Below, in pieces: positions 45,432-45,471 of a stretch of DNA of 64,000 nucleotides. The DNA lies in contig CAMWSK010000002.1 of assembly GCA_947176895.1 (NCBI GenBank), positions 24,423 through 88,422 of the forward strand, written 5' to 3'. How positions within the stretch are numbered: position 1 is the first letter of the stretch; every line of letters starts with the position of its first letter. Made by a program: the position numbers and the translations under genes. The stretch comes from an uncultured Prevotellaceae bacterium (GTDB lineage Bacteria; Bacteroidota; Bacteroidia; Bacteroidales; Bacteroidaceae). Below the pieces are notes generated by a model. That model was not told the DNA's origin, did not search any database, and was given only the letters and a program-made list of their open reading frames with translations.

Positions 45432-45471
45432 TGCTTGCTTGCTTGCTTGCTTGCTTGCTTGCTTGCTTGCT
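45432..45471. repeat. Simple sequence repeat (TGCT)10, perfect
   Basis: Ten uninterrupted TGCT units (AGCA on the minus strand), 185 nt upstream of the cargo gene ATG. Confidence 0.97.

Follow-up and report, generated by a model that had tools for sequence, protein, structure and literature searches.

A tetranucleotide repeat in a conserved leader reading frame as a candidate phase switch for a surface-protein gene of an uncultured Prevotellaceae bacterium

We analyzed a stretch of 64,000 nucleotides from an uncultured Prevotellaceae bacterium (assembly GCA_947176895.1, contig CAMWSK010000002.1, positions 24,423 to 88,422; "the window" below) in which a perfect tract of ten TGCT units stands upstream of a gene for a 919-aa protein. 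Our favored reading, to which we assign a probability of about 0.55, is that the tract is a slippage-prone repeat in a leader open reading frame (ORF) and serves as an attenuation-type phase switch for the 919-aa gene. Judged from sequence, its probable role is that of a random on/off switch, one of a kind so far undescribed in gut Bacteroidales. The observations behind this reading are the tract itself, its polymorphism, the conserved ORF that contains it, a promoter box, the surrounding hairpin architecture, and the consequences that a change in repeat number has for the reading frame. A preliminary description of this DNA had proposed slipped-strand contingency at the site, and the proposal gains support from length variants in related genomes and from the same position of the tract in many diverged loci. 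Handles such as L009 and P0006 denote loci and homologues from other assemblies.

Repeat tract, leader reading frame, and hairpins

The tract at 45432-45471 is indeed perfect: Tandem Repeats Finder gives a TGCT consensus with a period of 4, 10.0 copies, and 100% matches, and the raw sequence agrees. By chance, 0.00 matches to a four-unit probe are expected (100 dinucleotide-preserving shuffles). A regular-expression scan of the 64 kb returned a T10 run at 27535 as the sole other simple repeat, so the earlier statement that the stretch holds no other long microsatellite stands. The end of the tract lies 184 nt from ATG 45247 of the 919-aa gene (ORF 42488-45247, minus strand). The 665-bp spacer and the gene have 45-49% G+C (0.45-0.49) against about 60% (0.60) in the flanks, and with three inverted repeats the upstream region is as low in G+C and as rich in hairpins as first described. 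The features on which the argument turns are as follows.

45571-45578, minus strand: candidate leader promoter P1, -7 box TACCTTTG, an exact match to TAnnTTTG
45418-45540, minus strand: leader ORF as it reads at ten units (n = 10), MLTDNQVFPKITAEIFGGSDYFV-(SKQA)3S-TYIL, 40 aa, stop codon TAA at 45420-45418
45472-45508, minus strand: hairpin T1 (AACCGCC-N9-GGCGGTT) with U-rich tail CGGATTATTTTGTT, inside the leader ORF and abutting the tract
45432-45471, minus strand: apparently hypermutable tract, (AGCA)10 on the gene strand and (TGCT)10 on the plus strand, encoding (Ser-Lys-Gln-Ala)n
45418-45431, minus strand: AT-rich box CTTATATATTATAA, which gives an early stop codon when n mod 3 = 1
45385-45417, minus strand: hairpin 1, GC-rich, a 14-bp inverted repeat with 13 pairs, free energy (dG) -21 kcal/mol
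45329-45384, minus strand: hairpin 2, the candidate attenuator, a perfect 26-bp stem with a 4-nt loop, dG -58 kcal/mol
42488-45247, minus strand: main gene, 919 aa, with N-terminal signal peptide MRKITSILMLLIMCVGASWA/Q and a weak ricin-B-like segment, in a low-GC segment

The AGCA tract thus lies within a small leader ORF and is not plainly intergenic. The possibility that it forms an N-terminal extension of the 919-aa ORF was rejected, since in-frame stops intervene in all three frames, and an exact-sequence look-up of a 67-aa ORF crossing the tract found no record. The P1 -7 box sits, as a motif match, 38 nt 5' of the leader ATG at 45540 and about 100 nt 5' of the tract, with a TTG (45602-45600) 21 nt upstream of it. 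TAnnTTTG is the Bacteroidetes -7 consensus, and TATAAT is not used by the Bacteroidetes primary sigma factor (PMC7366714). The exact consensus occurs 27-41 nt 5' of the leader ATG in the window and in L094, L100/L101, L104, L109, and L110, and no exact TAnnTTTG was found between the tract and the main ATG in nine signal-peptide (surface-protein-type) loci. Because the tract lies 3' of the only canonical promoter box and inside the leader ORF, what varies with repeat number is likely to be the reading frame and not the promoter spacing. The original alternatives, a tract "upstream of the promoter or inside the leader," can accordingly be narrowed to the leader.

The leader peptide follows the pattern M-x8-K-I-T-A-x-x-(L/F)-G-G-(S/L)-D-Y-F-V, after which comes (S-K-Q-A)n. 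In all eight loci compared, the leader ATG lies exactly 23 codons ahead of the tract, which begins at codon 24, and the leader frame is free of stops in all eight, while the other two frames jointly contain at least three stops per locus. Codons 2-9 are variable at all three positions, with no amino acid conservation, yet remain open; codons 10-23 are conserved at all three codon positions. When the leader was compared by codon position, no signal of selection on its amino acids emerged, and we therefore confine our claim to the open frame, as distinct from a function of the peptide.

The start of the leader (AUGCU) is complementary to the AGCA unit in most loci, with UGCU present at the start codon in six of eight. 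The minimum free energy (MFE) fold pairs the leader start AUGCUGACA (45531-45540) with UGUUAGCA at the edge of the tract (45464-45478), and the UGCU of the leader start is able to pair with any AGCA unit. In the folding model, such pairing might mask the start codon in a tract-dependent manner.

Since the unit has four nucleotides, each unit gained or lost shifts the leader frame, and n mod 3 sets the frame that is read after the tract. The three outcomes in the window sequence are as follows.

n mod 3 = 1 (n = 10, the window): stop TAA at 45420-45418, four codons past the tract (+12) and 33 nt before hairpin 2
n mod 3 = 0 (n = 9 or 12): stop TGA at 45293-45291 (+139), past both hairpins and 43 nt before the main ATG
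n mod 3 = 2 (n = 11, L009): stop TAG at 45283-45281 (+149), past both hairpins and 33 nt before the main ATG

The same division is found elsewhere. An AT-rich box equivalent to that of the window was present at every locus examined and stops one or two of the frames after 0-5 codons. No locus lacks such an early-stopping frame (0-5 codons past the tract), and none lacks a frame that continues into hairpin 2 or through it. Out-of-frame unit numbers move the leader stop into or past the hairpin at these loci: the window, L094, L099, L100/L101, L102, L104, and L014; in L094 and L100/L101 the long frame stops within the loop of hairpin 2. In L014 (225-235), the n mod 3 = 0 frame reads through both hairpins, and its stop overlaps the main start codon as ATGA, which is the classic arrangement for termination-reinitiation coupling.

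The hairpins differ in how they are conserved. The stem of T1 is a 10-bp inverted repeat (45486-45508), which the terminator scan also picked out (minus strand, 45508-45486). T1 corresponds to leader codons 11-19 and reads AACCGCC-N9-GGYGGTT across loci, with 93.7% of cells paired over nine loci and one compensatory CG-to-UA change; it is nearly identical in L094, a locus reached independently via the main protein. From these features, T1 may be a terminator- or pause-like hairpin. At the position of hairpin 2, every related locus has a long hairpin, with dG values of -25 to -58 kcal/mol; the sequences are mostly unrelated between loci, although some share pyrimidine-rich 5' arms. That hairpin 2 is kept as a structure, and mostly not as a sequence, counts in favor of an attenuation switch.

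The leader of the window as a whole folds with -129.7 kcal/mol (z = -10.5). In both the MFE and the centroid fold the tract is unpaired, save where its edge touches the leader start and where some weak pairs form locally. A hairpin of the hmw type, with the repeat as one arm, was rejected because the long hairpins of the predicted fold are made of nonrepeat sequence. Inspection by eye revealed no alternative anti-terminator pairing between hairpins 1 and 2. An Rfam search at a permissive threshold returned two tRNAs and no known riboswitch or leader family, the remaining matches being generic hairpin hits to microRNA models far below gathering scores.

Repeat number, cassette, and cargo in related genomes

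Exact look-ups of the 919-aa protein and of its Met9 start variant found no record, and strains were therefore compared through neighboring genes and homologues. Neighboring proteins of the window matched exactly in public metagenome-assembled genomes (MAGs) labelled "Bacteroidaceae bacterium," and sister assemblies were reached via the FdtA-like gene at 46355-46780. One of these, L009 (GCA_029054685.1), has 11 units against 10 in the window, at 99.2% identity over 4.9 kb; a second, L008, terminates within the tract after at least 9 units. In the species carrying homologue P0006, the repeat number is 8 in L094 and L097 and 11 in L095 and L096, and outside the tract these contigs agree over 3.2 kb (100.000% identity, 0 mismatches). 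Five further loci occur with multiple lengths: 15, 6, and 8 units in loci of the L102 type, 14 and 7 in the L099 type, 6 and 7 in the L104 type, at least 9, 8, and 6 in the L103 type, and a pair of 14 and 8. The expectation that unit counts would vary among related genomes is thus borne out, both between close strains (10 versus 11) and between identical 3.2-kb flanks (8 versus 11). By its length (10 perfect units, where about 6 or more suffice for slippage), its polymorphism, and a placement that alters the frame, the tract looks hypervariable and has the sequence-level attributes of a simple sequence repeat (SSR) contingency locus.

Public contigs produced by several assemblers also break in or just before the tract or in the long hairpin (L008:1, L014:1, the end of L103, the starts of L095-L097, L009:1, and L013:1). 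Among contigs of the species of the window, L009 and L013 end in the 26-bp hairpin, and L011 ends just 5' of the start codon of the gene. Such breaks are compatible with length heterogeneity within samples or with loss of coverage at the palindrome, and the contig ends that lie inside the tract (L008, L014, L103) are only suggestive of switching within a clone. In L013 (1-40) the loop of the palindrome reads caac on the gene strand, as opposed to gttg in the window and L009 (45329-45384), i.e., it is flipped, and the contig begins 4 nt ahead of the flipped loop. Either a genuine inversion between the arms or a fold-back artefact of library preparation or assembly could account for the flip.

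The arrangement is not confined to one species. Prevotellaceae-like MAGs from gut and rumen supplied at least nine other loci with the cassette, which is also represented by about 30 protein clusters. The cassette is short and self-contained, and its order is kept: -7 box, ATG, 23 codons, tract, AT-rich stop box, hairpins, and signal-peptide gene. This order recurs in the window, L094, L099-L104, L109, L110, and L014; 3' of hairpin 2 come about 60-80 AT-rich nucleotides and then a gene that begins MRK or MKK and has a signal peptide. The loci were reached by several routes. When the alignment of the cargo-protein family was scanned against species-representative genomes, the best match was L014, from a different MAG, where a cargo homologue with 40% identity is encoded on a contig that opens with (AGCA)14 on the gene strand; after the tract come a short hairpin, a perfect hairpin of about 27 bp with unrelated sequence, and an ATG 173 nt from the tract. 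The locus of the P0006 homologue, in another species, has the same layout, including its upstream part. A metagenome scan with the downstream flank CTTATATATTATAAAAGGTACGGGCGCG gave 0 matches, and one with the conserved upstream flank gave six more loci (n = 14, 14, 8, 15, at least 9, and 6). The window and L094 were found independently of this upstream-flank pattern. A search with the 40-aa leader of the window returned 17 clusters (90% identity) of tiny unnamed proteins with the same N-terminal pattern, and a profile search of 1.84 billion representatives returned 36 clusters at E <= 0.001, about 30 of which (50% identity) are clearly the same leader. SKQA stretches in these homologues amount to roughly 2-9 units, and several of the clusters are loci already named here, at other repeat lengths.

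The repeat unit itself can change. The P0202/L110 variant keeps the promoter box, the ORF, T1, and the hairpin but has an (AGGC)8 tract, which in the same leader ORF (L110:239-349) encodes an RQAG repeat. The conserved property is therefore a nontriplet repeat and not AGCA or a specific binding sequence. Written as GCAA and GCAG, the AGCA and AGGC units are one base apart, which points, on sequence grounds, to a concerted change of all units.

The cassette is always directly 5' of, and co-oriented with, a gene, which is usually that of a large signal-peptide protein ending in ...IYDLSGRRVQKAQKGLYIVNGKVVIK. There are two exceptions. L102 (reverse-complemented, 558-4903) has a 214-aa gene, a C5 DNA-methyltransferase-like gene, and a leucine-rich repeat (LRR) protein, whereas L105 (4001-8096; L105-L108) has a 66-aa gene, an 880-aa FtsK/SpoIIIE-domain gene, a 95-aa gene, and an LRR_5 gene. 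The leader cassettes of these two loci are 96-98% identical, homology stops right after the hairpin, and the operons differ. From its gene content, the L102 operon could be a phase-variable methyltransferase (a phasevarion).

Some family members carry altered or different repeats. At L099 (2509-2570), the cargo gene 3' of the 14-unit tract has a TGA at codon 20 (MRKITSLLMLLCVFVGTSW*) where L104 has GGA; the L099 leader is in the short-stop frame, and the cargo gene may be a decaying copy. L098 (1130-1500; homologue P0003) has the promoter box, the TATAAT-like box, the hairpins, and a leader ORF in which GGMDHFL replaces GGSDYFV. Its tract is reduced to a GCAAGCA remnant, and the ORF reads through the hairpins, so that the switch may be locked at this locus. 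Perfect 7-nt tandem repeats of four to five copies lie near family-member genes in other Prevotellaceae MAGs; ACCATTT, AATGGTC, TGGTCAA, ATTAAGC, and CATAATT are the units at these five sites.

L024:2781-2808: 7-nt repeat
L052:5691-5725: 7-nt repeat
L054:3198-3225: 7-nt repeat
L082:3543-3570: 7-nt repeat
L089:1539-1566: 7-nt repeat

The 919-aa protein had been called a type IX secretion system (T9SS) surface protein. A Sec signal peptide, MRKITSILMLLIMCVGASWA-Q, was read from the translation by eye, and the last ~75 residues end in a T9SS-CTD-like tail, IYNMAGQRLSKLQKGLNIVNGKVVLVK; the segment IYNMAGQRL..GLNIVNGKVVLVK is one that we take to resemble T9SS sorting domains. Searches of the protein against Pfam and NCBIfam found no T9SS domain and only a sub-threshold RicinB_lectin_2, its last 110 residues had no match to the T9SS family hidden Markov models (TIGR04183/PF18962), and among the relatives TIGR04183 was touched, marginally (E = 0.005), by 2 of 22 family members. 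A secreted surface protein would be consistent with the signal peptide and with the invariant C-terminal tail; the T9SS part of the label is plausible, with no match of this protein itself to a T9SS domain. In other strains the same slot holds 877- and 831-aa alleles that are 53-77% identical over most of their length and 100% identical across the last ~75 residues. The cargo gene is a mosaic among strains, and the slot looks like a recombining, hypervariable one of the surface-protein type.

In the wider setting of the window, 42000-46500 is a low-GC segment (44-56% versus about 60%) that contains the 919-aa gene and adjoins two tRNA genes on the same strand.

46096-46009, minus strand: tRNA-Ser, upstream of the tract
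45985-45913, minus strand: tRNA-Glu, upstream of the tract

A palindromic unit of 21-22 nt (about AAAACATGAACATGTTTTC) forms arrays of two to four copies at five intergenic sites.

7645-7706: palindromic-unit array
27399-27483: palindromic-unit array
38393-38432: palindromic-unit array
46238-46297: palindromic-unit array
61536-61596: palindromic-unit array

Two of the five arrays are followed by a similar CCCAA(A)GCC(C/T)TGCGGGCA motif. In the array before the FdtA-like gene, L008 and L009 carry one copy more than the window. The downstream edge of this array, about 100 nt before the gene, is also where five Logan contigs end. The array may be an operator array or another length-variable element.

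The proposed switch and alternative explanations

In the mechanism that we propose, transcription would start at P1, ahead of the surface-protein gene, and the leader ORF would be translated. T1 may act as a pause or checkpoint that needs a closely following ribosome; given its location inside the leader ORF, close coupling between ribosome and polymerase would be needed to pass it. At n = 10, the leader ribosome would stop at the TAA before hairpin 2, the hairpins would form, and expression would be low or off, with the formed hairpins acting as a terminator, a processing site, or a block, so that hairpin 2 would be the putative attenuator. At n mod 3 = 0 or 2, the ribosome would translate through both hairpins and prevent their folding, and with transcription or translation carried on into the 919-aa gene, that gene would be on. 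By analogy with the streptococcal pil1 system described below, we infer a low or off state for the window (n = 10) and an on state for L009 (n = 11). Both the short-stop and the read-through states are present among natural loci.

Several observations weigh against this account. Hairpin 2 is followed in the window by a tail, UGUGUAAUACCU, that has no canonical U-tract (5 of 12 positions are U, compared with 5-7 of 12 in the other loci where hairpin 2 could be resolved singly), and the terminator scan of the window did not call it. An exact promoter box is found 3' of the hairpin in both loci with nonsurface cargo, L102 and L105, and in the window a -7 box with one mismatch (7/8), TACCTTTT, lies at 45321-45314, directly after hairpin 2; judged by its sequence, this box could drive the 919-aa gene independently. 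Third positions in the conserved part of the leader are as conserved as the others, so the constraint on codons 10-23 is at least partly at the nucleotide level. L099-L104 were retrieved by a pattern of the T1 tail plus three units, and their identity in that part is by construction. Finally, the length variants that are free of this bias (8/11 and 8/14) are all n mod 3 = 2, the read-through frame, an agreement that is suggestive and comes from only two loci.

Several other explanations call for comparison. One is an RNA effect independent of translation, in which tract length alters the structure, stability, or processing of the 5' leader. The tract would be transcribed in the leader, given that it lies 3' of the only canonical promoter box; an extreme degree of structure is predicted for the leader (z = -10.5); and its AUGCU start is complementary to AGCA, with AUGCUGACA and UGUUAGCA paired in the MFE fold. 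There are also precedents in the heptamer of Haemophilus influenzae hmw1A, with its hairpin cut by RNase III, and in the AGAT leader repeat of Moraxella uspA2 (PMC12721329). We nevertheless regard this as unlikely, if well worth keeping in mind, because the tract is mostly unpaired and forms no arm of the long hairpins, the AGGC unit of L110 would not pair with the same partner, and the fixed ATG position and open frame in every locus would be needless. Somewhat less probable still is that the leader encodes a stand-alone, phase-variable microprotein with the hairpins as its terminators, the 919-aa gene having its own promoter and being unaffected. The ORF is called by gene callers in many assemblies, U/G-rich tails follow hairpin 2 in many loci, and the promoter boxes after the hairpin in L102, L105, and the window (the 7/8 box) would fit such an arrangement. 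It is difficult to square with an N-terminal stretch of nine codons that shows no amino acid conservation, a post-tract part that is frame-dependent junk, the constant location of the cassette just 5' of a co-oriented gene, and the nine signal-peptide loci that have no exact promoter box before the main gene.

A DNA-level switch, in which tract length alters the spacing or helical phase of promoter elements or regulator sites (as at nadA, hif, and porA), is the classic role of intergenic SSRs (PMC2791445) and could draw on the TATAAT-like box that follows the tract in every locus. We consider it improbable: tracts of 24-60 nt far exceed any -33/-7 spacer, the canonical -7 box is about 100 nt upstream and points through the tract, TATAAT is unused by the primary sigma factor of Bacteroidetes (PMC7366714), and the conserved ORF would be left unexplained. 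In the window itself, a promoter-spacer role of the hif, porA, or opc type was rejected, as the 40-nt tract lies 100 nt past the -7 box and is flanked by no -33/-7 pair. Contigs do often break at the tract or the hairpin, as might be expected if the tract regulated nothing and were either a neutral microsatellite or a product of assembly, but we find this very hard to credit given that many diverged loci, assembled by different pipelines, show the perfect tract at an identical codon position of the leader ORF, that the chance expectation is zero, and that length variants are cleanly assembled with identical flanks.

Relation to known systems and significance

The closest parallel to the proposed attenuation switch is the pil1 locus of Streptococcus gallolyticus, where GCAGA repeats lie in a leader peptide. 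There, translation of the short peptide stops 39 bp ahead of a stem-loop terminator, whereas the longer peptides made out of frame extend into the terminator or past it, and transcription rises (Danne et al. 2014, PMC3894217). This logic was established experimentally, and for that reason we count it in favor of the attenuation reading. As in pil1/pil3, a nontriplet SSR lies wholly in a short leader ORF 3' of a promoter, a stem-loop stands between the leader and the main surface-structure gene, one frame stops roughly 35-40 nt short of the hairpin (39 bp in pil1, 33 nt here), and the other leader frames run into or past it. The differences are also clear. The two systems belong to Bacillota and Bacteroidota and share no sequence homology; pil1 has about 22 copies of a 5-nt unit, as opposed to 6-15 copies of a 4-nt unit here. 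In our set, many species and loci share a conserved leader peptide and a conserved terminator-like hairpin ahead of the tract, the tract is followed by two hairpins, of which the long one is a perfect palindrome of 20-27 bp with a weak U-tail, and there are several types of cargo. The behavior of pil1 has been tested experimentally, while that of the present system is predicted from sequence.

Other systems share parts of the design. In hmw1A, the repeats form one arm of a hairpin and expression scales inversely with copy number (PMC12721329). The SSR of hmw1A is transcribed in the long structured leader of an adhesin gene, a placement like the one predicted here, and the long hairpin is essential in hmw1A; here the predicted fold lacks the tract as a hairpin arm, and the tract is in an ORF whose frame is likely to vary. 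In Haemophilus and Neisseria, the tracts of lic1, of lex2A (GCAA), and of mod (AGCC/AGTC) lie in the structural gene, and out-of-frame alleles truncate the protein. These loci resemble ours in having perfect tetranucleotide tracts, frame shifting by units, and surface or restriction-modification genes as targets, and the (GCAA)n of lex2A is an AGCA repeat in another register; the difference is that here the structural gene remains intact, because the tract occupies a leader ORF of its own farther upstream. In attenuators of the Escherichia coli pyrBI type, the leader ORF overlaps the terminator and the signal is the nucleotide pool. T1 (45508-45472), a terminator-like hairpin with a U-rich tail inside the leader ORF, is comparable, although the signal here would be heritable repeat length in place of the nucleotide pool and the role of T1 is putative.

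Phase variation in Bacteroidales has been attributed almost entirely to DNA invertases, and the invertible promoters target surface structures and restriction-modification functions (review, PMC11868660), as the cassette described here would. The difference lies in the mechanism, since the surroundings of the tract contain no promoter-flanking inverted repeats and no recombinase gene, and replication slippage would take their place. A full-text literature search found no SSR leader-ORF switch for Prevotella or Bacteroidota, with incomplete coverage, so that a prior description elsewhere is possible. Together with the invertase-based picture of the review, this upholds the earlier view that the switching mode would be unusual for Bacteroidales.

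At slightly less than even odds, we suggest that these loci represent a portable, invertase-independent cassette of gut and rumen Prevotellaceae-like Bacteroidales. It would comprise a leader ORF (KITAxxLGGSDYFV), a pause or terminator hairpin, a tetranucleotide tract (AGCA or AGGC), and a long hairpin attenuator, placed ahead of hypervariable secreted surface proteins and of operons for a methyltransferase or an FtsK-like ATPase, and it would provide a second, slippage-based form of phase variation by way of translation-coupled attenuation.

If the attenuation reading is true, "phase-variable attenuation" of the pil1 type extends from one streptococcal species to a second phylum, and the breaks that assemblies show at these sites would be explained. 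The surface proteins concerned are likely targets of phages, of the immune system, or of adhesion. Because the cassette would be recognizable, metagenomic reads could then report the on and off states of these surface proteins, and possibly of methyltransferases, across the rumen and the gut.

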